This document shows, one piece after another, positions 11,226 through 57,492 of a stretch of 64,000 bases of DNA. Below the pieces are notes generated by a model. It saw only the letters and a list, made by a program, of their open reading frames with translations, made no database searches and was not told the DNA's origin. This DNA is from Thermoplasmata archaeon. GTDB taxonomy: Archaea > Thermoplasmatota > Thermoplasmata > RBG-16-68-12 > JAJISG01. A program made the position numbers and the translations under genes. Location: positions 14,990 through 78,989 of the forward strand of contig JBHHZZ010000002.1 of the NCBI GenBank assembly GCA_046758325.1, given 5' to 3'. Numbering within the stretch: the first letter of the stretch is position 1; each line of letters starts with the position of its first letter.

Positions 11226-11630
11226 ATGGACGAGCTTGAAAGAATAAGGGAGAAGAAGCTCAAGGAGCTCGTGGAAAGAGCTGGGGAGAAACCTCAGAAG
11301 GAGGCATTCGCGGAACCCTTCGAACTCTCCGACGCCACCTTCGACAGGGAGGTGAAGAACCACAGCCTGCTCCTGGTGGACTTCTGGGCCCCGTGGTGTG
11401 GCCCCTGCAAGATGGTGGCGCCCGTCATCCGTCAGCTAGCTAAAGACTACAGCGGAAAGGTGGCCTTCGGGAAGCTGAACACCGACGAGAACCCGCAGAC
11501 CGCGATGAGGTTCAGGATCATGTCGATACCCACTCTGATGCTGTTCAAGAACGGAAAGACGGCGGACATCATCGTAGGCGCTGCACCGAGAGCCGGCATA
11601 GAGGCGATGCTAAGGAAACACATCACCTGA
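11226..11630 (+). CDS. trxA: Thioredoxin
   Basis: DFWAPWCGPCK active site, IMSIPT. Confidence 0.97.
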   Translation: MDELERIREKKLKELVERAGEKPQKEAFAEPFELSDATFDREVKNHSLLLVDFWAPWCGPCKMVAPVIRQLAKDYSGKVAFGKLNTDENPQTAMRFRIMSIPTLMLFKNGKTADIIVGAAPRAGIEAMLRKHIT

Positions 11631-11632
11631 GG

Positions 11633-12490: not shown

Positions 12491-12562
12491 CGTGATTACC
12501 GCCTAGACAAGGCCCCTCTGATTAAAAGGGGTTTGCCCCTCGTTCGCCCAGCCCACATAAGG

Positions 12563-12570
12563 TTTTATAT
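12563..12570 (+). promoter_or_regulatory. TATA box upstream of 3-hydroxyacyl-CoA dehydrogenase
   Basis: TTTTATAT preceded by ATAAGG. Confidence 0.5.
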
Positions 12571-12610
12571 CAATCTGAGGATGGTAACGAGATTCCTGGG
12601 GGATGATTGT

Positions 12611-22053: not shown

Positions 22054-23360
22054 AGACCTCCGATGAAGCGGCCTGGGTTGAGAACGCTGTCAGGATCGAA
22101 TTCAGCCTTCATGCGGGCGATGAGGTCGAAGTGTGGGGGTCGAGGACCCCAGACATCAATCCCTCTCTTCACCTCGGCGGGAGCCTTCTCCAGGATGAGG
22201 TGCCCTCCGAGGGAGCTGCTCAGAGCACCGAGTTCCTCAAAGGCTGACTGGGTAACCTCCGCCCCACCACCTTGCACCAGGCCGACATGCGCAACACCGA
22301 ACCCTGGATGAGCGATGATGCTGCCCTTCAGATCGAGGGATTCCAGCGTCTCGGGCACAGCATTCAGGAACGCGTCCATGGTTGCCGGAGGCAACGACGC
22401 CCTCAGACTCGTTGACCAGGTGGACAAGGGAAGGCTTGAGACAGACTGCCACAGCTCTCTGGAACCATCCCCGTCTCGGGCAAGGGAGCCGATGGCTCCC
22501 CGCACCTCTGCCATGCCCTTGACCTCCCCCACTTGCCTTTCCACCACCTCCCTCAGGTCACCAAACTCCGCCAACAGGTAGTGGCCACTAGGATCCAGGC
22601 TCAGAGTGCTGGCAGCGGTCTGACTAAGCACCGTAAGGGCCACGGACTCCAGCCCAGCGTCCAGAACGTCGCCTGCCGTCCTTACGGCTCCATCAAAGGT
22701 CGGAAAGGCAGAGGCAAGAGTCATGGTGAACTCGGGGAGAGGTTGCAGCCTTAAGGAGGCCTCAACAATCACCCCGAGGGTGCCTAGAGAGCCGACGTAG
22801 AGCTTCATCATGTTATAGCCAGCCACGTTCTTGACCACCCTGCCACCAGCCTTCGCGACTTGGCCATTGGGGAGGACCATCTTCATGCCTAGAACGGAGT
22901 CCCCCGGAGCGCCGAAGGACTGTCTTCTGGGGCCGAAAGAACTGACCGCCAAGGCGCCCCCGACGGTGGCCCTCTCCGGCATAGGGGGATCCAGGGGGAG
23001 AACTTGGCGGTGATGGCGGAGCAACTCGTTGGCAGCGGCAATCGTCATCCCTGCCGGGAGGATTGCCACCATGTCCTCCGGGGCGTGCTCGAAACCCTCC
23101 GTTATGCCACCCATGTCAAGCATGATGTCGACCCTCGCAGGCGGGTTTCCCATGTGCAGGGCCGTTCCTCCGCCAACGGGGACGACGGCCAGTCCTTGAT
23201 CCCCCGCGAAGGACAGGACACTTGCGAGATCCTGGACACTACCAGGACGTACGACCGCGGACGGTCGGAGGCCCTCCACATCTCTTTCGAGTTCTTGAGT
23301 TATGACGGTCTGCTCTAGGCAAGAGCGCAGCCTCTCAATCCAGCCTTCCCCCCGGGGCAT
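22050..23360 (-). CDS. glcE: Glycolate oxidase subunit GlcE-like
   Basis: PVGGGT, ATVGG, GGRVVKNVAGY, FDP..VLNPGR. Confidence 0.9.
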   Translation of the reverse strand: MPRGEGWIERLRSCLEQTVITQELERDVEGLRPSAVVRPGSVQDLASVLSFAGDQGLAVVPVGGGTALHMGNPPARVDIMLDMGGITEGFEHAPEDMVAILPAGMTIAAANELLRHHRQVLPLDPPMPERATVGGALAVSSFGPRRQSFGAPGDSVLGMKMVLPNGQVAKAGGRVVKNVAGYNMMKLYVGSLGTLGVIVEASLRLQPLPEFTMTLASAFPTFDGAVRTAGDVLDAGLESVALTVLSQTAASTLSLDPSGHYLLAEFGDLREVVERQVGEVKGMAEVRGAIGSLARDGDGSRELWQSVSSLPLSTWSTSLRASLPPATMDAFLNAVPETLESLDLKGSIIAHPGFGVAHVGLVQGGGAEVTQSAFEELGALSSSLGGHLILEKAPAEVKRGIDVWGPRPPHFDLIARMKAEFDPDSVLNPGRFIGGL

Positions 23361-23366
23361 GGTCCG

Positions 23367-24824
23367 CTACCTCGCTCTCGCTTGAAGGTCGGCAGGGACC
23401 CTCAAGAGGGGCATCTCCATCTTCTTCTCTCCGGGAAACACCTTGCCCGGGTTGCAGAGGCCCTCGGGATCGAAAACCCTCTTCACCCTCTTCATGGCCT
23501 CCAGGTCCTCCTTGGAGTAGACGAGGCCCATCATGTCCATCTTCTCCAGGCCGATACCATGCTCGCCGCTGATGGTCCCGCCGGCCTCGACACAGCATTG
23601 CAGGATGTCCTTCGAAGCGGCCAGGGTCCTCCTCACCTGATCCTGGTCCCGTTCATCGAAGAGAATAATGGGGTGAAGATTTCCATCGCCAGCATGGAAG
23701 ACGTTTGCGATGGTCAGACCGTACCGCTGGCCGATCGCGTACACCCGGGGCAGTACATCCGGCAACTTGCTACGAGGGATGACGCCGTCAAGGGTGTAGT
23801 AGCTCCGGCTCACCCGGCCAAAGGCACCAAAGGCCCTCTTCCGGCCCTGCCAGAGGAGTGTCCTCTCCTCCTCCGTCTCCGCCATCCTCACCTCCCTGGC
23901 ACCGCTGCTCCGGCAGACGTCCGCTACATCGGTAGCCCTCCTCTCCACAGCCTCTCTGAGACCGTCCACCTCTATCAGAAGCACTGCCTCGGCATCCTTG
24001 GGGTAGCCAGCATGTATGTAGTCCTCCACCGCACCGAGGGTGATCCGGTCCATCATCTCCACCGTTGCGGGGACGATGCCTTTTCCAATGATCGCCGAAA
24101 CAGTCTGGGTCGCGGCCTCCACGGAGTCGTAAATGGCCAGGATGGTCCTGATGGACTCGGGCAACCTCACAAGCCGGACGATGACCTTGGTGGCGATGCC
24201 CAAGGTGCCCTCAGAGCCCACCATGAGTCCGACTAGGTCGTATCCGATCATGTCCTCGGCCTTGCCCCCCAGAAGGACCAGCTGACCATCGGGCAGTACC
24301 ACCTCTAGGCCAAGGACATGGTTCGTCGTCACCCCGTACTTGAGGGTATGTGGGCCTCCCGCGTTCTCCGCCACGTTGCCACCTATGGTGCAGGACTGCT
24401 GACTGGAGGGGTCGGGAGCGAAATGCAGGCCCAGGGACAGGACGGCATCGTTCAGCTGCTGGTTGATGACTCCTGGCTGTACCACGGCTCTCAGGTTCGC
24501 CTCGTCAACCTCCAGGATCCTGTTCATCTTGACCAGGGAGATGAGAATCCCCCCCTCAAGAGGGAGGGCACCGCCGCTGAGGCCGGTTCCCGCGCCCCTC
24601 GCCACGAAGGGCACATGGAGCCTGTTGGCAAGACGAACGATGGATTGGACCTCCTCCGTCGACTCCGGCAGGACTACAACCTCCGGAAGAGCCTTGTTGA
24701 GGGTCAGCCCATCACAGTCGTAGACCAGAAGCTCCTCATAGTCCGCAATAACCCTTTCTCGACCGAGAATGTTGGCAAGCTCCTCTACGAGGGCCTTCCT
24801 GTCCACCGGGACACCCCGATGCAC
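23367..24824 (-). CDS. glcD: Glycolate oxidase subunit GlcD-like FAD-linked oxidase
   Basis: RGAGTGLSGG, PDPSS, FHAGDGNLHP, SGEHGIG. Confidence 0.93.
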   Translation of the reverse strand: MHRGVPVDRKALVEELANILGRERVIADYEELLVYDCDGLTLNKALPEVVVLPESTEEVQSIVRLANRLHVPFVARGAGTGLSGGALPLEGGILISLVKMNRILEVDEANLRAVVQPGVINQQLNDAVLSLGLHFAPDPSSQQSCTIGGNVAENAGGPHTLKYGVTTNHVLGLEVVLPDGQLVLLGGKAEDMIGYDLVGLMVGSEGTLGIATKVIVRLVRLPESIRTILAIYDSVEAATQTVSAIIGKGIVPATVEMMDRITLGAVEDYIHAGYPKDAEAVLLIEVDGLREAVERRATDVADVCRSSGAREVRMAETEEERTLLWQGRKRAFGAFGRVSRSYYTLDGVIPRSKLPDVLPRVYAIGQRYGLTIANVFHAGDGNLHPIILFDERDQDQVRRTLAASKDILQCCVEAGGTISGEHGIGLEKMDMMGLVYSKEDLEAMKRVKRVFDPEGLCNPGKVFPGEKKMEMPLLRVPADLQARAR

Positions 24825-45053: not shown

Positions 45054-45115
45054 AGCGGAGCAGTTACTAACATTTATAATGAGCAGCCCATTGGGCCTTG
45101 CGGTGGTTTCAGGCC

Positions 45116-46633
45116 ATGGTTTACAGCGACCTCAGCTACGCTTATAAGAGACTCCAAGACACTCTCGGTGCAGAAAGGGTTTCTCGGGACGATACAGAGA
45201 AGCTGGTGTACGGCCACGACTTCGGCCCCCTGCCGAAGCAGGCAGCCATACAATTCGAGCTCAAACCTGACATCATCACCCTCCCAAAGTCCACCCAAGA
45301 GGTCGTCCGCATCCTGGAACTCGGACGTGAGTTGGAAATCCCCGTCGTCCCCAGGGGCGGCGCCACGTCTTTTCACGGTGGTTGTGTACCCAACGTGGGT
45401 GGCATCCTCCTCTGCACCAATCTGATGAGGAAGGTAGAGGAGGTCGATGATGAGCGACTGTGCGTCACCGCTCAGGCCGGGGCCACCTGGAAGGATGTCA
45501 TAGAGGCCGTATCCGATGCTGGCCTCTTCCTTCCTGTCGTCCCCATGTTCTACAGGTCAGCCACTGTAGGGGGTTTCTTGAGCAACGGCGGGGTGGGCAT
45601 CGGCGCCTACAAGTACGGCGCTCCCTCCCAGTGGGTCCGCAGCCTCGAGGTAGTGCTCCCGAACGGACAGATCCTTGGCACAGGGGAGAGGTCCTTCGAC
45701 CTGGGCTCCCTGAACTACAACCTCACCAGCCTCTTCCTCGGTGCGGAGGGCACCCTCGGTGTGATAGCAAAGGCGACCCTGAGGTTGTTGCCGAAGCCTG
45801 GCCAGATGGCCAACACCGCGTACAGCTTCGAGGGCATGGGAGGATTGGCAGAAGCCCTGAAGCAGCTGGCGAGAACCCCCGTGACCCCCTACCACGTCGG
45901 CTTCGTTGACGGTGCCCACCTGCTCCTTCAAAGGACCCGCCTAAGGCAGCTCCCCGATGTCCCGGCCATGGCGATACTGACCTTCGATGGATCAAAGGAA
46001 GAGATAGAGGCTGAGAGGAAGGCTGCCGATGACACCCTCTCCTCTTTGGGGAAGAGGGAGGAGGATGAATCAGCGAGCATCCTCTGGGAGCACATATACG
46101 AGCCCTACGACGCCCGAAGAATCTCCGGCGGTCTAGTGGTCGCAGAGGGGGTCGTACCGCTCTCAAACTTGGAGAAAGCTGTGCAGGCAACGATTCGGGA
46201 AGCCAGGAGGATAAGGGCGGAGCCAGCCTTCCATGGCTTTCTGGTGGACCGGGGCTCAGCATTCTTAGCCCCCTATATCCTCACGGACGAGAGAACCCTG
46301 AGGGGGCAGCTAGCCATCTCTTTCGTGGAGAGATACCACAAGACCCTCATGGACCTGGATGGTCACCCCTTCGGCCTGGGACTGCTCACGACCTACAACC
46401 TAGACGCCATGTACGGTTCCGTGGCAGGCCATATGAGGGCCATCAAGGAAGCCCTCGATCCCAAGGCCATAGTGAATAGGGGCAAGCTCCTGGGAACCAC
46501 GGGGAAGACACCGCCCTTCGCCCCTCCAGAAATCCCGGCAGGACTCATACGTCGTGGGCTAAGGACACTTGGAAACCTCAGGAAGCTCATGCCCTCAGAC
46601 AGGTACATAAGCAGGTTGAGGAGGGGGAAGTAG
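45116..46633 (+). CDS. FAD-linked oxidase (GlcD/VAO family) with atypical catalytic motifs
   Basis: PVVPRGGATSFHGG, ATVGG, LGAEGTLGVI, ALDPKAIVNRGK; lacks HAGDGNLH and EHG.G. Confidence 0.85.
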   Translation: MVYSDLSYAYKRLQDTLGAERVSRDDTEKLVYGHDFGPLPKQAAIQFELKPDIITLPKSTQEVVRILELGRELEIPVVPRGGATSFHGGCVPNVGGILLCTNLMRKVEEVDDERLCVTAQAGATWKDVIEAVSDAGLFLPVVPMFYRSATVGGFLSNGGVGIGAYKYGAPSQWVRSLEVVLPNGQILGTGERSFDLGSLNYNLTSLFLGAEGTLGVIAKATLRLLPKPGQMANTAYSFEGMGGLAEALKQLARTPVTPYHVGFVDGAHLLLQRTRLRQLPDVPAMAILTFDGSKEEIEAERKAADDTLSSLGKREEDESASILWEHIYEPYDARRISGGLVVAEGVVPLSNLEKAVQATIREARRIRAEPAFHGFLVDRGSAFLAPYILTDERTLRGQLAISFVERYHKTLMDLDGHPFGLGLLTTYNLDAMYGSVAGHMRAIKEALDPKAIVNRGKLLGTTGKTPPFAPPEIPAGLIRRGLRTLGNLRKLMPSDRYISRLRRGK

Positions 46634-46634
46634 G

Positions 46635-48059
46635 ATGTCTTCCGGCAACGTGGACCTGATGGACAGGCTCAGACGCTTCCCCGGCCTGGAGAGGGTTCCC
46701 AGGGAGGAGCTAGTGAAGGCCGTCTACCTGAAGGACAAGAGGGCCCTGCCCGACGATCTCAAGAGGCTTCTCGACAGCATTACCGTCTTGAGGATTCCCG
46801 TTGAGGACGCCGAGGATATATCCCACATCCTGGGGGTAGCTACAGGGGAAGTGGCCGGCATAAGCCTCGGTCTGCCGGCGGACTCCCTACACTACGTCAG
46901 AACCCGACTGGCCATGATGAAGGACCGGGAACTTGCAGTGGATTGGACCCCCAGGGAGGACCCTTTCGACGGTGAGATACTTCCCCAACTGGATGGCTTC
47001 CAGGTGGACCTGGCAAAGCTGAAACGAGTTGAGCTGGACGAGGAGAACGGGGTGGTCCTCTGTGGAGTTGGAGCAAGGTGGCGGGAGGTCTTCGAGACCT
47101 GCGAATCGATGGGATGGATCTTTCCCCTCTCCCCCATCCTGCCCTCAAACCCCTACCTGGGAGACGTGGTGGGCGGTACCGCTTTCTTGGCATCGTTCAA
47201 GGGCGGACCTGAAGCGTATGTCAGAAACATCGACTTCCTCTCACCCGACGGCCGCTATGGGGAAAGCGGCTTTGATCTCGTACCCAATAATGCCGCCGGT
47301 TACGACCTGAACTCCCTCATGCTGGTAATGGGGCGCCACATGATCATACCGGTGTCCGTCACCTTCACCCTTCTTCCCATGGCTTCCACAGTGAAGACCT
47401 CGAGGTACAGCGTCTGGAGCCCGGAGGCTCTGGTCGAGGCTATGAGAAATCTCATCAACACCCGGGTGCAACCTCTCAGAGTTTCCTTTGGCGACGGAAC
47501 TGGATCCCTGCTGGCCTTTGGCCGGGAAGGGGAGCCCACCATCGAGATTGTCCTCGCCGGGACTGAGGAAACTCTCCCCGTCCAGCAGAAGCTCGTGGAC
47601 GCCGCCTTCAAGGAAGGTGCGAACAAGGAAGAAGTGGAAGGGCTGACGCATGTCACACAGTCAGCCCCGGGTGGTGATGCCCCACCTTCCCTACTGGTGG
47701 AGTTTCGCGCCTCTCTTGCGGACCTCCAACTCATACTTCAGGATGTGACATCCTGGGTGGAAGCACAGGGCTCCGGGTTCGGCATCATCGGTTCCCTCTA
47801 TCAGGCAGGAACGGTCAGCGTCATCCCCTTCATCAGCGGACAGACCAACCGGGGCGAGAGGTTTACCCGGGTGCTGGAACTCGCTCAGATTGCCCGCAAG
47901 CATAGCTGCAGGCTGCGGAACAACCCGACAATCCACCTTCTCTCGCCAGAGGCAAACTTGGGGAAGCGGTTCGCCCTCGTACGTAGGATGAAGGAGAGGG
48001 TGGACCTCCCCCACGTGATCAACCCGTCCAGCCTCCTCATGGTTCCCAGAGACCTCTGA
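46635..48059 (+). CDS. Degenerate FAD-oxidase-fold partner subunit (GlcE-like)
   Basis: VGARW, NAAGYDLNSL, KERVD..VINP; no GGGT flavin loop. Confidence 0.7.
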   Translation: MSSGNVDLMDRLRRFPGLERVPREELVKAVYLKDKRALPDDLKRLLDSITVLRIPVEDAEDISHILGVATGEVAGISLGLPADSLHYVRTRLAMMKDRELAVDWTPREDPFDGEILPQLDGFQVDLAKLKRVELDEENGVVLCGVGARWREVFETCESMGWIFPLSPILPSNPYLGDVVGGTAFLASFKGGPEAYVRNIDFLSPDGRYGESGFDLVPNNAAGYDLNSLMLVMGRHMIIPVSVTFTLLPMASTVKTSRYSVWSPEALVEAMRNLINTRVQPLRVSFGDGTGSLLAFGREGEPTIEIVLAGTEETLPVQQKLVDAAFKEGANKEEVEGLTHVTQSAPGGDAPPSLLVEFRASLADLQLILQDVTSWVEAQGSGFGIIGSLYQAGTVSVIPFISGQTNRGERFTRVLELAQIARKHSCRLRNNPTIHLLSPEANLGKRFALVRRMKERVDLPHVINPSSLLMVPRDL

Positions 48060-48065: not shown

Positions 48066-48407
48066 TCACATCAGAGCGACTCCACACTTGTCACATACTG
48101 TCTGACCCTTCTCCGCCACATTCCCGCATCTGGGGCACACGTTTGGCATATTCATCTTGACGGGCCAGATCGTGAAGAGCAGGCCGAGGGCGAGGAAGAG
48201 CCCAGCCATCCACCAGTTGGCGGTGTAGATGCCCTCAAGACCGATAGCGAAGAGCACCACCGCAGACACCTTGGATATGAGAATGACCTTCTGGACCTTC
48301 GGAAGCTGCTTGATGAGACGAATCTCCGCTTTTCTGGACATCCTGCGAGGCCATCGCGGCCTGTCAGTGTCTCCCTGCTCACTGCCGAGCTCCCCCGACA
48401 TCTCCAT
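48066..48407 (-). CDS. Small 2-TM protein with C-terminal zinc ribbon
   Basis: Two hydrophobic helices; CPRC..(10)..CDKC. Confidence 0.65.
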   Translation of the reverse strand: MEMSGELGSEQGDTDRPRWPRRMSRKAEIRLIKQLPKVQKVILISKVSAVVLFAIGLEGIYTANWWMAGLFLALGLLFTIWPVKMNMPNVCPRCGNVAEKGQTVCDKCGVALM

Positions 48408-48411
48408 CTGG

Positions 48412-48828
48412 TCAGGCCCCCGCCACTTCCTGGACGGGCGCGGGCTTTCCGTCCACGACCTCCCACCCAGGTCTCGGAATCATCACAATGGCTTCTACGG
48501 GACAAATGACGGCACACTTGGCGCAGCCGATGCAATTCTCATCCACGATGAAGGATTTGCGGGTCTCGAAGCTCATATCGGGCAGGTAGGAAGTCTTGTC
48601 GATGAAGACAATGGCATCCTCATGGTCAGGCCGCACGTTCTCCGGACAGTTATCGGCGCAGTGGATGCAGCCCATGCATATGTCTTCGTACACGTAGGCT
48701 ATCACCCCCTTCCCCCGGGGGTACTTAAGGACGAAGTTCCTGCGCATCTCGTCAAAGCTCTTCTTGGCAGTGTGACGAGACCTGTGCCTTGCCAGCCTGG
48801 AGTCCGCCAGCGCCTCCATCTTGGTCAT
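48412..48828 (-). CDS. 2x[4Fe-4S] ferredoxin
   Basis: CMGCIHCADNCP and CIGCAKCAVICP; ATGA overlap with the upstream gene. Confidence 0.9.
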   Translation of the reverse strand: MTKMEALADSRLARHRSRHTAKKSFDEMRRNFVLKYPRGKGVIAYVYEDICMGCIHCADNCPENVRPDHEDAIVFIDKTSYLPDMSFETRKSFIVDENCIGCAKCAVICPVEAIVMIPRPGWEVVDGKPAPVQEVAGA

Positions 48829-49835
48829 GAGGGGACTTCCTTTTGGACGGTCTCTACCGCCGCGGGCTCCTGGAAGGTCTGCTCCACGTCCTCTCGCTCC
48901 GCGGCCAGGACCTCCGCCGCTGTCTCGTCCAGGCATTCAGCCAGGAACTGAGTGATGTCGATGACCTTGAATTCAAACTTCTCCCGGTCCTCCCTGTAGA
49001 GGTTCTCGTGCTGCTGGCAGCCGAAATGAGTGAGGCACTTGGGACATGCGGTGAGCATGTAGTCAACCTCCTTCTCCTTCGCCTCCATCATCCGGTCGTT
49101 AGTGATTCCCTTGGTCTTCTCGTTGCAGTACATCATGCCAGCGACACCGCAACACGTCGCATCAGCCCGGAAGTGCTCCATCTCAACGTACTCGGCCCCG
49201 GTCATCCTGATGAGTTCCCTAGGCTCCTCGTAGACTGGATCTACGGGCATCTGGCGGCACATCCTGCAGGGGTCCTGGTAGGTCACCCGTGCCTTCTTCC
49301 GCACCTTGAACTCGACGCCCTTGTCGTAGAGTACCTGGGTGATGTGCTTTACCTCGATGCCCTCGAGGTCATAGTCGAGCTTGAAGGTCCGATAGCCCTC
49401 CGCGCAGCTCACGATGAGGGTTTCCACTCCTGCCTGCTGGAATATTCTCTTCATCAGGGACTCGTTGTACTCCCTCAGCTTGTTCCAGACATCGATCTTC
49501 CCCTGCCACAGCTGGTCGTGGCCACAGCACTTCATGAAAGACCTGTCCAGAATGACGGGGTCGATGCCCATGGCCTGCAGGAGCTTCACGGAGGAATCGA
49601 AGATGATTCCGTGGTCGGTCTCCCCAAAGTTGTTGCGACTAAATTGCATCTCGTAGTCGTAATAGTCCACACAGCCAGGGTAGTAGGCGTACTCGCTCTT
49701 CCCCCTGATCTCCACCTCGGGGATCTCGTCCCACTCCGCCTCCTTGTCCAGGGTGGCGAACATGATAGGGTGGGGCACCGTTCGCTCCCCCGCCGTCAGG
49801 TCCCTCATGGGAAAGCCCATCTCCTCCGGTCTCAT
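48825..49835 (-). CDS. CCG-domain Fe-S oxidoreductase (HdrD/HdrB/GlcF-like)
   Basis: YYPGC, KCCGH, VSCAEG, YQDPC, TCCG, TACPKC. Confidence 0.9.
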   Translation of the reverse strand: MRPEEMGFPMRDLTAGERTVPHPIMFATLDKEAEWDEIPEVEIRGKSEYAYYPGCVDYYDYEMQFSRNNFGETDHGIIFDSSVKLLQAMGIDPVILDRSFMKCCGHDQLWQGKIDVWNKLREYNESLMKRIFQQAGVETLIVSCAEGYRTFKLDYDLEGIEVKHITQVLYDKGVEFKVRKKARVTYQDPCRMCRQMPVDPVYEEPRELIRMTGAEYVEMEHFRADATCCGVAGMMYCNEKTKGITNDRMMEAKEKEVDYMLTACPKCLTHFGCQQHENLYREDREKFEFKVIDITQFLAECLDETAAEVLAAEREDVEQTFQEPAAVETVQKEVPS

Positions 49836-51181
49836 GCTCCTCCCCCTTCACCACCATCGGCTGCTGCGGGTCTGGCTGCGACGGTTGGCCTCTCTATGGG
49901 TATCCTCTGTTTTGCCTTCATGACCTTCGCCCTCTCGGTCAACACGTACGCCGAGTAATTTATATCTAGGGGACAGACGGCACTGCAGGCATCGCAGGTC
50001 AGGCAGGACCACATGGGGACGCCGTCGTGCTGCTGCTTGTAGACATTGTAGACAAGGTTCAGGCCACCCAGGGCATCCGCCTCCACCTTGGTGATGGGAC
50101 ACACCAGGTGGCACCTGCCACACTGATAGCACTCGTTGAGCTTGAACTCATAATCGCTGTAGGGTGTTCTCTGGCCAAAGTAGGTGACCACTATGGAGAA
50201 GATGGGGAGGGCGACGAAGGCATGGGAGTTCGTCATTATGTATGCCTGAACGTAGCCGAAGATTCCCCGCTCGAAGTTCATCAGGTACCAGGTCACGGGC
50301 GTCAGGAGGGCCAGTGTGAAGCCCATCCATAGGAAGAGAGTCCTCCGGCCCTGATGCTCGTCGAGGAAGTAAACAATGAAGAGGGCGACGACGGCGGTAG
50401 AGAGGGCGATGCCCACGTAGACGCCCAGGAAGAGGTTCTCCCTGGTCAGGAGAGAGATGAAGCCTCTTCCCTCCATCAGGTTGATGCCTACGATGAGATA
50501 AGATGTGACGGCCAGTAGGAGGACGAGGGCGAAGCCGTTGAAGAGGGTGTTGATCCGCCTCATGGGCTTGAAGGCCAGACGCCTCATGGCGACGTAGGTG
50601 ACCAGGCCAGCCAGGACGGGCTCCACCACGAACATCCATTTTAGCGTGTCATCGGTTATGAAGGGAAAGGCGGAGACGACGAGGATGTTGACGGAATAGA
50701 CGGTGGCGGCGAAGACCCACACTATGCTGGCGACGCCCACGGCAGCCCGGATGTTCGCCTTGGCTGGCCTGCTCTCGAAGCCCTTGTCGATGAAGGGCAG
50801 GAGGAGGAGGATTATGAAGGGCACCCCCGAGAGAAGCGCCCCGTACGTCAGCGTCGAGAGGCTCAGGCCAAAGATCGTGACGGGCGGAAAAAGCTCCACT
50901 ATCTTGAGGAGGCCCCACGACCAGAGGAGGTACCAGTCCGGAAGCTCCACTCCCCCGAGGACGAAAGGGTTGGCGGAGTCGCCCAGCTCCGGCACCGCAA
51001 TCCCCGTCAGGATGAACATGATCCCCGTCATGATGAGGATTACGACCAGGTCTCGGTAAGCCTCATGGGGAACGAGGGCGTGGCCTGGCTTCTTGTCCGT
51101 CCGAGCAGGGCCATACTGGGTGGGGAATCCTATCCGTTCCTCTCCTACCACCGTCTCCAACGGGACCTGCTGCATCCTCAC
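49832..51181 (-). CDS. Cytochrome b C-terminal (subunit IV/PetD-like) fused to extra TM helices and an HdrC-like 2x[4Fe-4S] domain
   Basis: Qo motif LPDWY, PFID, then CYQCGRCHLVCP and CLTCDACSAVCP. Confidence 0.88.
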   Translation of the reverse strand: MRMQQVPLETVVGEERIGFPTQYGPARTDKKPGHALVPHEAYRDLVVILIMTGIMFILTGIAVPELGDSANPFVLGGVELPDWYLLWSWGLLKIVELFPPVTIFGLSLSTLTYGALLSGVPFIILLLLPFIDKGFESRPAKANIRAAVGVASIVWVFAATVYSVNILVVSAFPFITDDTLKWMFVVEPVLAGLVTYVAMRRLAFKPMRRINTLFNGFALVLLLAVTSYLIVGINLMEGRGFISLLTRENLFLGVYVGIALSTAVVALFIVYFLDEHQGRRTLFLWMGFTLALLTPVTWYLMNFERGIFGYVQAYIMTNSHAFVALPIFSIVVTYFGQRTPYSDYEFKLNECYQCGRCHLVCPITKVEADALGGLNLVYNVYKQQHDGVPMWSCLTCDACSAVCPLDINYSAYVLTERAKVMKAKQRIPIERPTVAARPAAADGGEGGGA

Positions 51182-51184
51182 TCC

Positions 51185-51949
51185 TCAATGCGGCTCGGCG
51201 ATGCCCTGTATCCATACGATGGTCATGTGGAGGAGCATGAGTCCGATGCCCACCATGGGCATTATGAAGATATGGAACCAGTACATCCTGAGGACGGTAT
51301 TCGCTCCACATGTGAGCCCACCGAACATGATTTCCGCTGTCAGGTCTCCGATGATGGGGATCGACTTCGCCATGTTTATTCCGATGAAACACGCCGACAG
51401 GGACAGGCTGTTCCACGGGAGCAGATAGCCAGTGTACCCAAAGCCGAACAACGAGATGACGAGGAGGATCACGCCCACGATCCAGTTGAGCTCCCTGGGC
51501 TTCTTGTAGGCTCCCGTGAAGTAAACCCTTGCCATGTGCAGGAAGACGGCTGCAATGAATATGTGAGCAGCCCAATGGTGTACGCCCCGCCATACGTATC
51601 CCAGAGGTACCTCCTCCATGATTAGCTGGAGACTCTCAAAGGCAGGGGAAGTGGTACTCCCGTCCGCCAAGAACCTGACGCTGCTGTCAGGGATGTAGTA
51701 GAAGCCCAGGACGATGCCCGTGATGGTAAGAATGATGAAAGCTATGAAAGCCAGTCCGCCGAGGCAGTATAGGGGGTACCAGTACCAGATGGTCTTGAGT
51801 TCGTACTTCTCCGCGTGGCTACGTGGCATCTGGCGATGTATGGATAGGAAGGCCTTCCTGGTCTTCTCGGCCCAGGGGGCTACCGGGAACCTTTCTGCAA
51901 ACCAATCGAAGATGGCCTTCCTCAACCCTCCAAACGGCTTGCGAGCCAT
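51185..51949 (-). CDS. petB: Cytochrome b6-like N-terminal subunit
   Basis: YCLGG, HHWAAH..LHMARV, GYTGYLLPW, HIFIMP...LLH heme ligands. Confidence 0.93.
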   Translation of the reverse strand: MARKPFGGLRKAIFDWFAERFPVAPWAEKTRKAFLSIHRQMPRSHAEKYELKTIWYWYPLYCLGGLAFIAFIILTITGIVLGFYYIPDSSVRFLADGSTTSPAFESLQLIMEEVPLGYVWRGVHHWAAHIFIAAVFLHMARVYFTGAYKKPRELNWIVGVILLVISLFGFGYTGYLLPWNSLSLSACFIGINMAKSIPIIGDLTAEIMFGGLTCGANTVLRMYWFHIFIMPMVGIGLMLLHMTIVWIQGIAEPH

Positions 51950-51960
51950 CCCTATACCCC

Positions 51961-52728
51961 CTATTCGGGCATCGCCGCATCCTTGTACAGCAGATAGCGA
52001 TACCAGTCCTGATTCTTTGCCACTCCCACAATGCGGTCTCCGTCCGTGTCTAGCGCAAGAGGAATCAGCGGCATGCCTCTATCCGCCGGCCCCACTCCAG
52101 GCACCTTGTAGACTCCGATGTACTCAGCTCCACTAGCATCGGGAGGCGATGGATGCTGATACTCGGCGACGCGACGAGGGTTGTACTGGGAATCGTGACA
52201 GACACAGTATATGTTGTCACGGTCCGGGTTCTCTGGGTCCACCGTCTTGTAATCCGACACGGGGATGAGCTTCCAACCTGGAGGACAGCATGCATGAGTA
52301 CAGCAGTTGAATATCGAGTAGAGGCCCTCGATGACGAATTCGTCGCGAGAATATCCCTCGGGGAATTCCAATTCGTCCTCCTCCATTTGGATAAGAATCG
52401 CTGGAAAGCCAGAACCGGGAACAATACTCCCCTCCTCATCAACGATCCGTTTCCACAGCACATTTGCCCCCATACCTGGCTCGAAATGACTCAGTCGAGC
52501 GTCTTCTCCGATCAGATTCTCATACCATACGGGGAGCCTCGCTCGTTCTGGATTTAGGTACATGAATGTGTCCCGTACCTCACCCTTGAGCTCTATTTCG
52601 GGAGACATCAGGGACCTGAGAGTCCCGAATGCCGCGACTCCTAGGAAACCTGCTGTCCCAGTGGCCACAGCCCCCTTGAGGAAGGACCTCCTGGTGATGC
52701 CCTCTTCAGGGATGCCCCTCTTCCGCAT
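51961..52728 (-). CDS. Rieske [2Fe-2S] protein with Tat signal
   Basis: TRRSFLKG twin-arginine motif; CTHACC and CVCHDSQY boxes. Confidence 0.92.
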   Translation of the reverse strand: MRKRGIPEEGITRRSFLKGAVATGTAGFLGVAAFGTLRSLMSPEIELKGEVRDTFMYLNPERARLPVWYENLIGEDARLSHFEPGMGANVLWKRIVDEEGSIVPGSGFPAILIQMEEDELEFPEGYSRDEFVIEGLYSIFNCCTHACCPPGWKLIPVSDYKTVDPENPDRDNIYCVCHDSQYNPRRVAEYQHPSPPDASGAEYIGVYKVPGVGPADRGMPLIPLALDTDGDRIVGVAKNQDWYRYLLYKDAAMPE

Positions 52729-52729
52729 G

Positions 52730-52957
52730 TTACTCCTTCAACTCCCTTCTTGGAATTATTTTGGGTATTCTCGTCTTCACGACCATCTCATCGGGGAGGA
52801 AATGATTCCGGTAGATGTCCACCATGGCGGCCATGCCAAAGAACATTGCCCCTATCCACAGCGACAGCCAAGTGGGATCCCAACCATCGATGAGACCGAT
52901 CACTATGAGAGCACCAAAGAACAGCTGGAAGAAGGCGAGCACATATATCGTCACCAA
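52730..52957 (-). CDS. Small 2-TM membrane subunit
   Basis: Hydrophobic ORF tightly packed between cupredoxin and Rieske genes. Confidence 0.7.
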   Translation of the reverse strand: MVTIYVLAFFQLFFGALIVIGLIDGWDPTWLSLWIGAMFFGMAAMVDIYRNHFLPDEMVVKTRIPKIIPRRELKE

Positions 52958-53001
52958 GGCCGTCAGCGCCTCAGTCGGGGGCTCTGTGCGTATTATCTCG
53001 G

Positions 53002-53937
53002 TCAGGGAAGTCCCCTCCTCTTGTGCTCCTTATGGTCGGCGTGATGGCGGCTCTCGTACTTGATGGCGAAGTACGAGACAATGATCACAGCGATCATGCT
53101 AAAGATGCCTATGAGGCCGATCCAGTAGGCTCGAAGGGCTATTCCCCTAGGTCCTCCCGCTTCCTCCAAACCCACAACGAAGACCCCCTCCATCCCCGCT
53201 TCCCTATGGCCGGGTACGTCGCACCAGTAGCCATATACACCCGTCTCGTTTATCCAGAACTCCACACTGGTGACCTGGCCCGGAAGGATGAAGGGCGTCT
53301 CATACTCTACGCCGCCAATGTCCACTTTGAAGTTGTGATCGATGTCTGGATTGACGGTGTCATTGTTGATGAAGGTGACTTTGACGAGAATCGGCACCGA
53401 CGCGATGAGAATCCTGTCGGGCCTTAGCAGGAAGCCATCCGGTGTGCCCTCTCCGTAGATTTCGATGGAGAGTTCCATGGGGGCGCGTACTTCATCCTCG
53501 GGCGGAGTCAGACCCACGATGAACTTCCCCTCCATCCCCAGCTGTCGATGGCCTGGGACCGAACACCAGTATTCGAAGGTCCCCGTATTGTTTATCCAGA
53601 ACTCCACATACCCGACTTCACCCGGATCAAGTAGTGGAGTCTCATAGAAGACTCCATCGATTGTCGTAGTGAAGTTGTGTCTCGATTCTGTGACGAAATC
53701 TAGATTGACGAAGGTGACGTTCACAAGAATTCCCGCCGTTCCGATGAGGATTTCGTCCGGGTCGAAGAAAAGAGCAGTACCATCGGCGGTGGCGTTCCCG
53801 ATTACGGTAACGGAGAGCTTCATCAGGGGAGGGTCTTGAGCCTGGGAAGAGGGTGCACTAAGGATGACGGCCGACAGCACCAGGATGGCACAGATGGCCA
53901 GTGTCGTAGCACTGGTTGGGCGATTTTCCGTTTCCAT
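53002..53937 (-). CDS. Membrane-anchored tandem blue-copper (cupredoxin) protein
   Basis: Signal peptide; HNF...YWCSVPGHRQLGM and HNF...YWCDVPGHREAGM; C-terminal TM and His-rich tail. Confidence 0.9.
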   Translation of the reverse strand: METENRPTSATTLAICAILVLSAVILSAPSSQAQDPPLMKLSVTVIGNATADGTALFFDPDEILIGTAGILVNVTFVNLDFVTESRHNFTTTIDGVFYETPLLDPGEVGYVEFWINNTGTFEYWCSVPGHRQLGMEGKFIVGLTPPEDEVRAPMELSIEIYGEGTPDGFLLRPDRILIASVPILVKVTFINNDTVNPDIDHNFKVDIGGVEYETPFILPGQVTSVEFWINETGVYGYWCDVPGHREAGMEGVFVVGLEEAGGPRGIALRAYWIGLIGIFSMIAVIIVSYFAIKYESRHHADHKEHKRRGLP

Positions 53938-53989
53938 CGCTTCCGCATCCCTCCAATCCACCGGGGCCGGTCCCGCGTAAGTTGCTAGC

Positions 53990-54003: not shown

Positions 54004-54145
54004 TGGACTTCATGAGAGGGGTCTGGCTAGCACGAATTCCCCGACATTTTCCACCTCGGAAGTTGACTGCCGGGATGTGATGAGGTTACCGCCTAGGTCT
54101 CCTGCGGCCAGTATCTTTAAGGGTCCAAGCAGACATGCGGAGTCG

Positions 54146-54535
54146 ATGAGGTCAGGGCTGAAAACGGCCTTCATCCTGCTCGTTATTTTCTTCTTCTCCA
54201 CGGTCTTCCTCGCTCTTCTCTACCGACCCTCGGAAAGCCCGCCCTTCCCTGAGGCCCCGAGGGTTTACGTCGACATGACCATCTCCCTCTCCAAGCTACT
54301 TCCCGACCTGATTGAGGTTGAGCAGGGCACTCACGTGTTTCTAAACATCACGTCCATGGACGTGGAACATAGGTTTGCGTTGACATACTACCTGACCACA
54401 GTGAGAGTCCCCGCCGAAGAAGCCGTCGTGGTCGAGTTCCTCGCCAACCTCCCCGGTACCTTCGCCTTCCAGTGCACAGTGGTCGCCCCGGGACACCAGA
54501 CGGAGAGGGGCAATCTGGTGGTGACGGCGCAGTGA
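54146..54535 (+). CDS. Membrane-anchored cupredoxin-like protein with atypical ligand set
   Basis: N-terminal TM; VFLNITSMDVEHRF, FQCTVVAPGHQTE (COX2/NosZ-like fold pattern). Confidence 0.75.
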   Translation: MRSGLKTAFILLVIFFFSTVFLALLYRPSESPPFPEAPRVYVDMTISLSKLLPDLIEVEQGTHVFLNITSMDVEHRFALTYYLTTVRVPAEEAVVVEFLANLPGTFAFQCTVVAPGHQTERGNLVVTAQ

Positions 54536-54552
54536 GGAGCGAGTCCGCAGGC

Positions 54553-54560
54553 TTTAATAA
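54553..54560 (+). promoter_or_regulatory. TATA box of the ahb-sirC unit
   Basis: TTTAATAA about 22-30 nt upstream of the ATG at 54582. Confidence 0.55.
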
Positions 54561-54581
54561 GCCCCGAACCTAGCCAAAGGA

Positions 54582-55064
54582 ATGAAGGAGGCGAAGATGG
54601 TAATTGAAGACGTGGACAGGAAGCTGATGATGGAAATGCAGGATCACTTTCCACGGTCCGTCACCCCCTTCAAGGAGATTGCTTCGCGGTTGGGGCTGAC
54701 AGAGGAGGAAGTCCTCGAGAGGACCCGCCGCCTGCAAGAGAAAGGCATGATCAGGAGGATAGGCCCCATCCTCAACGTGAGGAGGGTACGCCAGAGGGTA
54801 GGCTCACTCATAGGCATGAGGGTACCTGGCCAGAGGTTGGACGAGGTGGCCGAGGTCATCAATCAGTTTCGAGAGGTGAGCCACAACTACATCAGAAATG
54901 ATGAGTACAACGTGTGGTTCACCATATCCGCCAGAGGTCAGGAGAGGTTTGACGAGATCCTCGATACAATCCGGAGGGAAACGGGAATAGACGATATCCT
55001 CGTCCTCACCACCATAAGATACTTCAAGCTTGGAGTGAGATTCGACCTAGAGAGGGATTTCTGA
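54582..55064 (+). CDS. ahbA: Siroheme decarboxylase alpha subunit
   Basis: Lrp-like NirD/L pattern: FP....PF..IA, IRRIGP, VSHNY.R..EYNVWFT. Confidence 0.88.
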   Translation: MKEAKMVIEDVDRKLMMEMQDHFPRSVTPFKEIASRLGLTEEEVLERTRRLQEKGMIRRIGPILNVRRVRQRVGSLIGMRVPGQRLDEVAEVINQFREVSHNYIRNDEYNVWFTISARGQERFDEILDTIRRETGIDDILVLTTIRYFKLGVRFDLERDF

Positions 55065-55534
55065 TGGAGCTCGACGACCTGGATAGGAGGATCTTGGATG
55101 AGTATTATTACGGAATACCCGTCGAGCCACATCCGTTTCGGGGTTTGGCGAAAAGGCTGGAGACGTCTGAGGGGAAGGTCCTTAGGCGCATCGAGAGGAT
55201 GCTCGACAAGAGAATTCTCAAGAAGTTCGGCGCCTCCCTTGGCCACAGGAAGGTGGGGTACAGCGCCAACTGCATGGTCGTATGGAAGATCCCCGAGGAC
55301 AAGGTGGAACTCGCAGGGAAGGTCATGGCCAGCTACAGGGAAATATCCCATGCATACGAGCGCCGAACCATACCCGGCAAGTGGGAGCACAACATGTTCT
55401 GCATGATCCACGCTCCTGACAGGGAGAAGGTGGAGAGGATCGTGAAGGAAATAGAGGAGAGAACCGGCATACACGACTACAAGCTCCTCTACAGTACCCG
55501 AGAACTCAAGAAGACGACGGCCGTAATGGAATGA
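55064..55534 (+). CDS. ahbB: Siroheme decarboxylase beta subunit
   Basis: HRKVGYSANCMVVW, ISHAYER.....W.HNMFCMIH. Confidence 0.9.
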   Translation: MELDDLDRRILDEYYYGIPVEPHPFRGLAKRLETSEGKVLRRIERMLDKRILKKFGASLGHRKVGYSANCMVVWKIPEDKVELAGKVMASYREISHAYERRTIPGKWEHNMFCMIHAPDREKVERIVKEIEERTGIHDYKLLYSTRELKKTTAVME

Positions 55535-55535
55535 T

Positions 55536-56180
55536 ATGATCCCCCTGTTACTGGACCTGAGGGATCGCGAGGTCTGTATCTTCGGCGCCGGCAGAGTTGC
55601 CCTTCGAAAGGCTCGGCTCTTCTCCAACTATGCCCGGGTCCGAGTCGTAAGCGACTCCTTCCACCCGGAGTTCGAAGACCTCTCCGTAAGAAAGGTGAGG
55701 GCCCGGGTGGTCGACCCTGAGGAGTACATTGGCAATGCATTCATCATAGTCCCCGCAACGGATGACAGGGAGGTGAACTCTAGGATCATGAAGACCGCTC
55801 ATCGGCTGGGGCGTCTGGTGGACTCAGTTGACGGCGTTGGAGACATCATCGTTCCCTCCATCTTGAAGAAGGGCGATATCGTCATCGCTATATCCACCTC
55901 TGGTAAGAGCCCGGGGCTTTCCAGACACCTGAGGAGAAAGCTGGAGGAGAGTATTGGGCCCGCATGGGAGAGTATGGTTCGCCTGCAATCACACCTAAGG
56001 GCGTTGCTGAAGGCTAGGTTGGGGGAACAGACTGAGCGGGAGGGCATCCTAAGGCGATGTCTCGAGGATGAACGGGTGTGGAAGGCCCTGGAGGAGGGCG
56101 ATGAGAAGGAGGCCTGGAGCCTCGCTGCAGAGATTGCCGGCCTTGAGACACGGGGCGATGGGGTCCAACACGAGAAGTAG
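55536..56180 (+). CDS. sirC: Precorrin-2 dehydrogenase / sirohydrochlorin ferrochelatase (Met8p/CysG N-terminal type)
   Basis: IFGAGRVALRKA, ATDDREVN, ISTSGKSP. Confidence 0.9.
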   Translation: MIPLLLDLRDREVCIFGAGRVALRKARLFSNYARVRVVSDSFHPEFEDLSVRKVRARVVDPEEYIGNAFIIVPATDDREVNSRIMKTAHRLGRLVDSVDGVGDIIVPSILKKGDIVIAISTSGKSPGLSRHLRRKLEESIGPAWESMVRLQSHLRALLKARLGEQTEREGILRRCLEDERVWKALEEGDEKEAWSLAAEIAGLETRGDGVQHEK

Positions 56181-56195
56181 TTTCGCTGCATTCTC

Positions 56196-56208
56196 GAAAC
56201 TTAAATAA
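56196..56208 (+). promoter_or_regulatory. BRE/TATA promoter of the hem operon
   Basis: GAAAC-TTAAATAA 30 nt before the hemA ATG. Confidence 0.65.
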
Positions 56209-56238
56209 GGCCATGTCATTGCAGAGGCCAGAGGCGCC

Positions 56239-57492
56239 ATGGCGGACATACTGAGTGCCCACGTCACCCACAAGTGGGTGGACATCGAGAAGCTGGAGCT
56301 CTTCGTCGCCAAGGAGGCCAGGTCTCTCCTCCACTCCGTCCACGCTCTCGACAGCATCGACGAGGTGGTCCTGCTCAAGACGTGCAACCGCGTGGAGCTT
56401 TACACAGCCACGGAGGACCTCCGGGGGGCCCACGAAGGGCTGTCCCGATTGGCCAGCGGTCTCTTCCCGGAGGAGCTCAACGGCGCGATCAGGTACATGG
56501 AAAACGCGGGATCAATCAAGCATCTCATGAAGGTGGCCGCTGGGCTTGAATCCATGATCGTGGGCGAGGACCAGATTCTTGGTCAGATAAAGGAGGCCCA
56601 CGGCTTCGCCAGAGAGGAGGGCACCATAGGGAGGACGCTGGACCTCCTCTTTCGGAAAGCCATCAGCGTCGGCAAGAAGGTCCGGAACGCCACGATGATC
56701 AACAAGGGATCCGTATCCATAGGCTCCGCGGCCGTGGAGCTGGCGGAAAGACTCCTGGGCAGCCTGAGGGGGAGGACCATCCTTGTCATGGGAGCGGGGG
56801 AAATCGCTTCCCTAGTGGCAAAGGCCCTTGCTGGTAGGGATCTGAAGGCCATCTTCGTCGCCAACAAGACCCACTGGAGGGCCGTGGAGATGGCCCAACA
56901 GCTGGGAGGACTGGCCATCAGGTTCGAGGAGCTACCTCACTACATTCCCATATCCGATCTGGTGATAGGCGCCACATCCGCCCCTCATGTAGTCCTCTCC
57001 AAGGACGACCTGGCAGGGATGCTGCAGTTCAGGTCACCTGAAGAGAAGCTCCTCATCATAGACTTGGGCAACCCCAGGAACGTGGAGGAGGCGGTAGCGG
57101 AGATTCCCGGGGTGGTGCTGAGGAACCTGGACGGGCTTCGGGAGATTGCCGCGGAGAACGTCGAGAGGAGACGGCGGGAGATCCGGCACGCAGAGGAGAT
57201 CATCGAGCAGGAGATGCCCCTCCTCATCCGGAAGTTCCAGGAAGGGAAGGCGGAAGCGATCAACAGGACTCTGTACCAGAAGGCCGACAAGATCTTACAG
57301 ATGGAGTACGAGGAGCTGGCCTCCAGGCTCAAGGGCCTGGACGAGGAGGGGATGAGTATCATCGAGTCCTTCGCGCGGTCTCTCACTAAGAAGCTTCTTG
57401 CCGGCCCTAGCAAGGCCCTCAGAGAGGCATCCCGTCAGGGCGATATCGACCTGCTAAGGGCGGCCGAACGCCTCTTTGAGACGGAGGAGTGA
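56239..57492 (+). CDS. hemA: Glutamyl-tRNA reductase
   Basis: LKTCNRVELY, GLESMIVGEDQILGQ, GAGEIA, ATSAPH. Confidence 0.97.
   Translation: MADILSAHVTHKWVDIEKLELFVAKEARSLLHSVHALDSIDEVVLLKTCNRVELYTATEDLRGAHEGLSRLASGLFPEELNGAIRYMENAGSIKHLMKVAAGLESMIVGEDQILGQIKEAHGFAREEGTIGRTLDLLFRKAISVGKKVRNATMINKGSVSIGSAAVELAERLLGSLRGRTILVMGAGEIASLVAKALAGRDLKAIFVANKTHWRAVEMAQQLGGLAIRFEELPHYIPISDLVIGATSAPHVVLSKDDLAGMLQFRSPEEKLLIIDLGNPRNVEEAVAEIPGVVLRNLDGLREIAAENVERRRREIRHAEEIIEQEMPLLIRKFQEGKAEAINRTLYQKADKILQMEYEELASRLKGLDEEGMSIIESFARSLTKKLLAGPSKALREASRQGDIDLLRAAERLFETEE

Follow-up and report, generated by a model that had tools for sequence, protein, structure and literature searches.

To our knowledge, textbooks describe Rieske/cytochrome b complexes as exchanging electrons on the n-side of the membrane with quinone only. 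Whether this holds for all archaea is a question raised by an operon in a 64,000-nucleotide stretch of DNA, called the window below, from a Thermoplasmata archaeon, uncultured and from a hydrothermal vent (GenBank assembly GCA_046758325.1, contig JBHHZZ010000002.1, positions 14,990 to 78,989). On its minus strand, between 48066 and 53961, eight closely packed genes follow one another in the order cupredoxin, DUF7318, Rieske protein, cytochrome b6, a subunit IV fusion, a CCG-domain protein, a ferredoxin and a zinc (Zn)-ribbon protein. Judged by its sequence, this is the operon for the organism's complex III, which belongs to the b6 type of Rieske/cytochrome b complexes and whose subunit IV ends in a domain for two [4Fe-4S] clusters, the dicluster. 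What appears to be new is the combination of a Rieske/cytochrome b6 complex with a probable iron-sulphur (Fe-S) wire of the EtfD/HdrD type, found widely in uncultured archaea. An earlier note on the same DNA had proposed that the n-side of the complex may be wired directly to a module of the HdrD/GlcF type, and this idea is supported by the conservation of the fusion and by the existence of a single-chain form in other archaea.

A dicluster domain on subunit IV

The fusion gene and its parts lie in the window as follows (aa, amino acids; E, expect value):

51181/51175-49832, minus strand: the whole subunit IV/dicluster fusion gene, 447/449 aa; the start used in the database, ATG at 51175, gives 447 aa
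50561..51181, minus strand: subunit IV part, helices E-H, with the Qo motif PDWY; matches QcrB 242-430 of 9wcx (E 4.6e-6)
50171..50560, minus strand: extra transmembrane (TM) helices I-L, specific to the layout found in the window (architecture B) and absent from architectures A and C, described below
49901..50170, minus strand: 2x[4Fe-4S] domain resembling HdrC and the GlcF N-terminus; Fer4_8 (E 3.9e-8) and HdrC 5odc_C (E 1.1e-4)

Residues 1-205 correspond to subunit IV or the C-terminal module of cytochrome b and were aligned to helices E-H of actinobacterial QcrB; within them P79-D80-W81-Y82 is invariant. The Pfam model PF00032 stays below its cut-off in the window protein and rises above it in the relative at locus L009, and a Foldseek search with the AlphaFold2 (AF2) model of the fusion returned mycobacterial and corynebacterial QcrB as the only significant neighbours. 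The N-terminal part can therefore be read as a subunit IV with a Qo motif of the PEWY type, such as characterizes a b6-type Rieske/cytochrome b complex. At the other end of the protein, the dicluster domain, which in the family search also matched the N-termini of GlpC, HdrC and GlcF, is joined to helix L via an invariant linker, R-x-P-Y-S-x-Y-E. In a conservation profile of 117 full-length homologues both the subunit IV part and the dicluster are highly conserved, and the eight cysteines of the two CxxCxxCxxxCP motifs are conserved to 100%, which identifies the domain, at the level of its motifs, as HdrC-type. Helices I-L are poorly conserved in sequence in the same profile, and Foldseek found no structural analogue for them. 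Extra haems in these helices were ruled out, conserved histidines being absent from the 117 homologues, and a NapH-like origin of the part made up of four TM helices plus dicluster was rejected, since architectures A and C join the dicluster straight to helix H.

On which side of the membrane the dicluster lies can be predicted with some assurance. Helix E begins from the n-side in all cytochrome b proteins, and the AF2 model of the fusion has eight long helices, with a predicted local distance difference test score (pLDDT) above 90 for residues 150-335, so that the C-terminal Fe-S domain should come back to the n-side, that is, to the cytoplasm. The loops RRLAFKPMRR and DEHQGRR, rich in lysine and arginine, lie on the same side as the C-terminal domain, in keeping with the positive-inside pattern, and a [4Fe-4S] domain within a polytopic protein would be expected to be cytoplasmic in any case. 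The earlier note had made its proposal depend on a cytoplasmic location, and such a location is predicted by the helix count, which is even, by the positive-inside distribution of charges and by the homology to helices E-H.

That the fusion might be an assembly artefact or a mis-called gene, a possibility of which the earlier note had warned, is ruled out by its recurrence in three independent samples, in more than 100 assemblies and in 49 species genomes. The 5.9-kb stretch is complete in contigs of three different hydrothermal-vent metagenome samples; the sequencing runs that contain it are DNA runs from one study, none of them RNA. A protein search gave 196 relatives, of which the best 120 are 41-81% identical, mostly about 430-450 aa long, and named merely '4Fe-4S dicluster domain-containing protein' or 'ferredoxin'; full-length fusion homologues come from more than 100 assemblies. 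The survey of archaeal operons combining PetD, Fer4 and CCG genes that had been suggested showed a conserved family, with 49 operon loci in species-representative (GTDB) genomes whose metagenome-assembled genomes (MAGs) are labelled Thermoplasmata, Thermoplasmatota, 'Methanobacteriota' or 'Methanomassiliicoccales'. According to the names of cluster members and the sample labels they stem from soil, groundwater, sediment and vents, and the gene order from cupredoxin to Zn-ribbon is identical in all loci long enough to be assessed. Nor does the architecture seem to have been characterized under an unrelated function, the remaining way in which the proposal might have fallen, as full-text literature searches gave no description of a fusion of subunit IV with HdrD or ferredoxin. 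Marine Group II archaea have been described as possessing a cytochrome b and a Rieske protein while lacking a canonical complex III, along with an orphan 'RnfB' (PMC6336850), and reviews of cytochrome bc evolution leave Fe-S fusions unmentioned (PMC5600118).

A profile search over 1.84 billion representative proteins returned only four clusters, at 50% identity, of the full-length form, plus relatives of other layouts. In architecture A, found in a 'Halobacteria archaeon' and in groundwater MAGs, a four-helix subunit IV is joined directly to the dicluster (about 300-340 aa); the operon runs cytochrome c, DUF7318, Rieske, b6, fusion and then a UbiA-family gene, with neither a CCG or ferredoxin gene nor the GlcD/E-like pair in its vicinity. 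The proteins of architecture C, 543-932 aa long, unite subunit IV, dicluster and two CCG domains in a single chain. Such a chain acts as a Rosetta stone and suggests that the dicluster and the separate CCG protein of the window work as one HdrD-like unit on subunit IV. At locus L008 of an uncultured archaeon (4808-14955) the genes are multihaem cytochrome c, Rieske, b6, single-chain fusion, HdrC, HdrB, HdrA (1010 aa), MvhD and again multihaem cytochrome c, and at L009, in a Bathyarchaeia MAG, an HdrA-like gene comes directly after the single-chain fusion; the GlcD/E-like pair is not adjacent at either of these architecture C loci. From these comparisons the Fe-S port appears to be modular, with a cytoplasmic partner that varies between lineages. 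L008 is in its own right a candidate Rieske/cytochrome b-Hdr supercomplex, which could link quinone-based and flavin-based bifurcation. At L009, b6 (570-1301) has YYLGG in place of the YCLGG found in the window family, so that the covalent haem cn is probably absent there, although the n-side Fe-S module is kept.

The other subunits and the kind of Fe-S module

The other seven genes of the operon are the following:

53002..53961, minus strand: tandem type-1 cupredoxin, 319 aa, likely start ATG at 53937; PF00127 in two stretches (E 5.6e-13)
52730..52957, minus strand: DUF7318 subunit with two TM helices, 75 aa; PF24002 (E 9.5e-8)
51961..52728, minus strand: divergent Rieske [2Fe-2S] protein, 255 aa, exported by twin-arginine translocation (Tat); TAT_signal, RRSFLKG, boxes CTHACC and CVCH
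51185..51949, minus strand: cytochrome b6, 254 aa, four TM helices; PF13631 and PF00033 (E about 1e-36), NCBIfam cytochrome b6 (E 1.4e-56)
48825..49835, minus strand: protein with two CCG domains, 336 aa; PF02754, CCG (E 7.9e-18)
48412..48828, minus strand: 2x[4Fe-4S] ferredoxin-like subunit, 138 aa, most likely start ATG at 48828; Fer4 families
48066..48407, minus strand: membrane Zn-ribbon protein with two TM helices, 113 aa, C-terminal CxxC...CxxC; Zn_ribbon_3 (E 2.8e-5, below cut-off)

All eight genes are where the earlier note had placed them. Its ATGA overlaps hold for the junctions fusion/CCG and CCG/ferredoxin; between the ferredoxin and Zn-ribbon genes there is instead a 4-nt gap.

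The cytochrome b6 aligns over its full length with solved b6 (E 2.9e-38), with the four haem histidines in register, and the cysteine of its YCLGG motif aligns with that of FYCLGG in solved b6, the site of the covalent haem cn/ci. Histidines H124, H138, H226 and H241 together with YCLGG are invariant in 47 of 47 family loci, and by this alignment the subunit should carry haems bp, bn and, probably, cn. The Rieske protein is more difficult. Support from hidden Markov models is weak (QcrA, E 8e-7; Rieske_proteo of NCBIfam), the Pfam Rieske model did not reach E 0.01, and a phmmer search of the Protein Data Bank gave no Rieske protein, only chance matches to DnaK. However, tblastn relates it to its counterparts at L008 and L009 (E 7.7e-11 and 1.4e-23), and because the L008 counterpart matches Pfam Rieske at 1.4e-8, homology marks the product as a genuine, though unusually divergent, Tat-exported Rieske protein. 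The cupredoxin has an N-terminal hydrophobic signal or anchor, a C-terminal TM anchor helix and, in its translation, two C..H..M ligand sets, YWCSVPGHRQLGM and YWCDVPGHREAGM; its position is conserved across related loci, and it presumably serves the Rieske centre as its high-potential electron acceptor. The DUF7318 gene sits, in both architecture A and architecture B, between the cupredoxin or cytochrome c gene and the Rieske gene. On the downstream side, the ferredoxin-like subunit is present in all family loci, resembles the ferredoxin domains of HdrA, and has a basic N-terminus and a 36-residue insert between its two motifs; that it might be the missing NuoI was not supported (41 bits against a cut-off of 217). 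The Zn-ribbon gene is the last gene in every family-B locus.

The CCG protein bears on what kind of module this is. In NCBIfam it matches best the C-terminal part of TfrB, which oxidises thiols (E 8.9e-28), and its nearest solved relative is EtfD of M. smegmatis (9ojn, E 8.6e-11); with the AF2 model (pLDDT 79), Foldseek again ranked EtfD at the top (2e-14, TM-score 0.62), followed by LutA and several HdrB chains. The second CCG motif is complete (C190, C228, C229, C264, C267). The first, CCG1, has four cysteines (C55, C103, C104, C144) and ends in SCAEGY, the fifth cysteine being replaced by glycine, and this ending is found in 34 of the 34 family members examined; Glu146 lies at the position of His583 in EtfD. 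The fifth cysteine is kept in the architecture C proteins (SCAEC) and in the true HdrB of L008 (ICNGC). Canonical Hdr catalysis requires two five-cysteine noncubane clusters (PMC13083937). By its motifs, then, the window protein does not have the ligands of a heterodisulfide reductase, and the loss of the fifth cysteine throughout the family makes CCG1 look more like an electron-transfer wire than a disulfide-cleaving site. The arrangement seen in EtfD, two cubanes plus two CCG domains of which one has reduced cysteine ligation, can be recognized here, with a different pattern of ligand loss; a haem b domain of NarI/HdrE type in the same chain, which EtfD has, is absent from the sequence. Within the window, the canonical GlcF matches the dicluster in its N-terminal part (32% identity) and the CCG protein in its C-terminal two-thirds (24% identity), so that dicluster and CCG protein together would amount to a split GlcF.

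Other observations concern the surroundings. Divergent from the operon (54077-57492, plus strand) lie a small cupredoxin-like open reading frame (ORF; PF13473, weak), two siroheme-decarboxylase-like AhbA/B genes, a gene for a siroheme synthase N-terminal domain and hemA; genes of the alternative haem pathway thus adjoin the cytochrome operon, at a place where soil relatives have an A-type ATPase operon. The catalytic subunit of this ATPase, upstream of the operon, contains an intein at L001 (247-2562), L003 (1-2640) and L004 (1-2590), each of which has an Intein_splicing annotation, accompanied by LAGLIDADG at L003 and, faintly, at L004. An Rfam scan of the window gave no matches.

A possible entrance or exit for electrons

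A candidate donor is encoded just beyond the Zn-ribbon gene:

45098..46633, plus strand: FAD flavoprotein resembling GlcD/LctD, candidate electron donor; PF01565 (E 5.9e-35), PF02913, LctD 7qh2_C (E 5.9e-42)
46635..48059, plus strand: GlcE-like protein with a degenerate FAD_binding_4 domain, candidate partner; PF01565 (E 3.4e-6)

The reading that we favour, with a probability of roughly 0.45, is that the Fe-S proteins form a dehydrogenase-fed wire on the n-side that leads into haem bn/cn and the Qi quinone, its donor being most likely this GlcD/E-like pair. Quinol electrons would pass through the b6-type complex to the membrane-anchored double cupredoxin in a normal Q cycle. Up to six Fe-S clusters, contributed by ferredoxin subunit, CCG protein and PetD dicluster, would line up as a chain on the n-side, perhaps kept in place with the help of the Zn-ribbon membrane protein. 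This chain would be fed by substrate oxidation in a cytoplasmic flavoprotein, most probably the pair; from it electrons would reach haem bn/cn and quinone at Qi, and the resulting quinol would be oxidised at Qo. We infer, in this scheme, that the CCG, ferredoxin and flavoprotein subunits dock and that the proximal cluster lies near haem bn/cn, and likewise the substrate and the direction in which electrons flow; reading the chain as an entrance would follow the analogy of EtfD, GlcF and GlpC. All the CCG systems of aerobes known to us (GlcF, GlpC, LutA, EtfD) are inputs, and the setting here is of an aerobic type, with cupredoxin, Tat and haem biosynthesis genes adjacent.

The pair is suggested as the donor because it comes without a GlcF of its own while a complete canonical glcDEF lies elsewhere in the window (20779-24824, minus strand; GlcD 485 aa, GlcE 436 aa, GlcF 424 aa). 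The divergent pair has no GlcF in its operon, and what may be a split equivalent is found in the convergent complex III operon. It follows the Zn-ribbon gene in 35 of the 36 loci with at least 3.3 kb of downstream sequence; at the exception, L091, a 1731-aa ORF (8324-13519, minus strand) comes directly after the Zn-ribbon gene and the contig then ends. The pair is retained at L007 and L075 although the genes beyond differ, and in about one-third of loci an AsnC-type regulator gene stands between operon and pair without further separation. Retention at these two loci, the AsnC insertion without separation and the absence of the pair from architectures A and C add some weight to the adjacency. 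Homologues of the GlcE-like protein were found in the same Thermoplasmata clade alone, by a word-based search with a reach of at least 45% identity. The GlcE/GlcD-like operon of L007 has in addition a gene for a 143-aa 2x[4Fe-4S] ferredoxin (13961-14392, minus strand), which fits a pair that uses Fe-S partners.

Several points weigh against this reading. The GlcD-like protein, 29% identical to the canonical GlcD of the window, has a conserved basic C-terminal tail and a TIGR00387 score of 177 against a cut-off of 568, and in all seven family sequences aligned it is without the motifs HxGDGNxH and EHGxG (the His/His/Glu metal triad), which the canonical GlcD carries as HAGDGNLH and EHGIG; it therefore does not match 2-hydroxyacid dehydrogenases in its metal and catalytic motifs, although the FAD domain is present. 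The pair is convergent on the operon and not co-transcribed with it. Adjacency is moreover weak evidence of physical partnership, since the pair sits inside a larger respiratory block that is itself conserved (A-type ATPase, operon, pair, TatA/TatC, Mo-oxidoreductase, nuoA-C-D-H). The dicluster domain, modelled without cofactors, is poor in the AF2 model (pLDDT about 40). Finally, HdrA or HdrABC-MvhD stand beside the single-chain relatives, and such partners are typical where electrons leave the quinone pool or are bifurcated. As to the nuo genes of the block, the complex I-like operon in L001-L006 has the order nuoA, nuoC, nuoD, nuoH, and nuoB is not found between A and C (L001 18484-21320); in the window the nuo genes lie at about 33-42 kb.

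The last of these points leads to the opposite direction of flow, in which the port would be an exit. In such quinol-based bifurcation, which we regard as somewhat unlikely, the branch of Rieske protein, cupredoxin and terminal oxidase would pull on Qo, and the second electron would run via bp and bn/cn to a low-potential cytoplasmic acceptor, ferredoxin or a flavoprotein. The Qo mechanism is inherently bifurcating; the single-chain fusion is followed by HdrA at L009, and at L008 by HdrC-HdrB-HdrA-MvhD together with multihaem cytochromes c; the family ferredoxin has similarity to the ferredoxin domains of HdrA; and a qmoC match was seen in the family search, while in HdrDE, DsrMK and QmoC a haem b membrane protein hands quinol electrons to HdrC/HdrD-like modules. 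On the other hand, the invariant cysteine for haem cn argues for a working Qi site, EtfD as the nearest solved relative and the CCG systems of aerobes point inwards, CCG1 is one ligand short as in the non-catalytic EtfD, and aerobic heterotrophs with 2-oxoacid:ferredoxin oxidoreductases normally have a surplus of reduced ferredoxin. In another reading the port is again an entrance. The complex would then have a built-in ferredoxin:quinone reductase (FQR) fed by a soluble donor (reduced ferredoxin from the 2-oxoacid oxidoreductases, or electron transfer flavoprotein, ETF), and the flavoprotein pair would have no part in it beyond being adjacent, as its place in a conserved respiratory block allows. 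Architecture A, with its dicluster alone and no CCG, ferredoxin or flavoprotein gene nearby, implies a soluble partner of this sort, the ferredoxin-like subunit of the operon could serve for docking in the manner of PsaC or NuoI, and nuoA is directly followed by nuoC in related loci, where the usual entry point for ferredoxin may be altered. A pair that has no Fe-S subunit of its own and stays beside the operon where other flanks change fits this poorly, and we consider a soluble donor unlikely. Doubtful as well, though wider in its implications, is a generalization in which the haem bn/cn pair is hard-wired to a cytoplasmic low-potential pool in either direction, as an FQR-like reductase carrying electrons from ferredoxin or flavoprotein to quinone via haem cn, or as a quinol-based bifurcating system that uses the oxygen-linked Rieske branch, the port of the anaerobic relatives coupling Qo bifurcation to flavin-based bifurcation at HdrA.

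A genuine thiol/disulfide oxidoreductase of the HdrD/TfrB type, coupling disulfide chemistry to the b haems, is what the match to the TfrB C-terminus, the HdrB fold and the complete CCG2 might suggest, and the single-chain relatives keep both motifs complete and adjoin HdrABC. The missing fifth cysteine of CCG1, the aerobic setting and a window with no coenzyme M/coenzyme B or DsrC context make such chemistry very unlikely here. Among the partners that the earlier note had considered, this one has accordingly lost ground, and a dehydrogenase has gained most, owing to the pair without GlcF and to EtfD as nearest relative. Least credible of all would be a non-redox role, in which the Fe-S proteins would help to assemble or regulate the complex or act as redox sensors for it: the poor conservation of the four spacer helices would be compatible with it, but the cluster ligands and the linker are extremely conserved, three independent fusion architectures always place the dicluster right after a subunit IV helix that ends in the cytoplasm, and the genes are tightly coupled in translation.

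Whichever partner is right, the family and two sister architectures in other archaea carry what looks like a built-in Fe-S port on the n-side. If this port feeds haem bn/cn, it would be a natural and tractable system for studying how electrons enter via haem cn, the 'FQR' route long debated for cyclic electron flow through b6f; if it is an exit, it would represent a new system of quinol-based bifurcation. The respiratory chain of widespread uncultured Thermoplasmata from soil, groundwater, sediment and vents would have to be redrawn, and a role could be assigned to proteins annotated just as '4Fe-4S dicluster domain-containing protein', 'ferredoxin' or 'RnfB'.

Relation to known complexes

The core of the complex is most similar to b6f and to the b6c complexes of Firmicutes and heliobacteria. 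They likewise have b6 and subunit IV split, four histidines at b6 spacing, a CxGG cysteine for haem cn, a PEWY-type Qo motif (here PDWY), a Tat-exported Rieske protein and, as with plastocyanin, a copper protein as acceptor. In contrast to them, subunit IV has four helices beyond H and a cytoplasmic 2x[4Fe-4S] domain, the CCG, ferredoxin and Zn-ribbon proteins are co-translated, cytochrome f or c1 is absent and the Rieske protein is very divergent.

The attached module finds its closest parallel in EtfD (Rv0338c/MSMEG homologue, 9ojn), where a wire made of a linear [3Fe-4S] cluster (CCG1), a noncubane [4Fe-4S] cluster (CCG2), two cubanes and a b haem, with gaps of 4-9 A, leads to menaquinone and carries electrons from ETF into the quinone pool (PMC13083937). 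Both of its CCG clusters have a full set of ligands and are shielded; in the authors' interpretation this is an adaptation to a wire that is non-catalytic and tolerates oxygen (PMC13083937). EtfD has the same order of cofactors and also one CCG motif short of a cysteine; however, it is one polypeptide with a five-helix mono-haem domain of the NarI/HdrE type, whereas here the core is b6 and subunit IV and more than one gene encodes the module. The lost cysteine differs too (CT...CPHC in EtfD, CC...CAEG in the window family), and the donor of the window module is probably not ETF. In HdrDE, DsrMK, HmeCD and QmoC, too, an HdrC-like dicluster, in some cases accompanied by CCG domains, sits on a quinone-linked b-cytochrome at its cytoplasmic side, but these systems use cytochromes of the NarI type and have neither a Rieske branch nor a Q cycle, and HdrD has two complete five-cysteine CCG motifs, unlike the window family.

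With GlcDEF, and with the dehydrogenases that combine GlcD with GlcF, GlpC or LutA, the system shares a GlcD-like FAD subunit, a GlcE-like subunit and a putative GlcF equivalent; here, however, this equivalent comes in two halves, of which the one with the dicluster has become part of a complex III subunit, and the flavoprotein genes form a separate, convergent operon. An extra redox module, possibly passing a low-potential electron to a cytoplasmic acceptor, has also been proposed for the Rieske/cytochrome b complexes of anammox bacteria (e.g. PMC12954380). Those modules are unrelated to the present one, consisting of a flavin/NAD(P) subunit and multihaem cytochromes in bacterial hosts with no fusion to subunit IV, whereas the archaeal complex described here would have an HdrD-like Fe-S module, with the dicluster on subunit IV itself.

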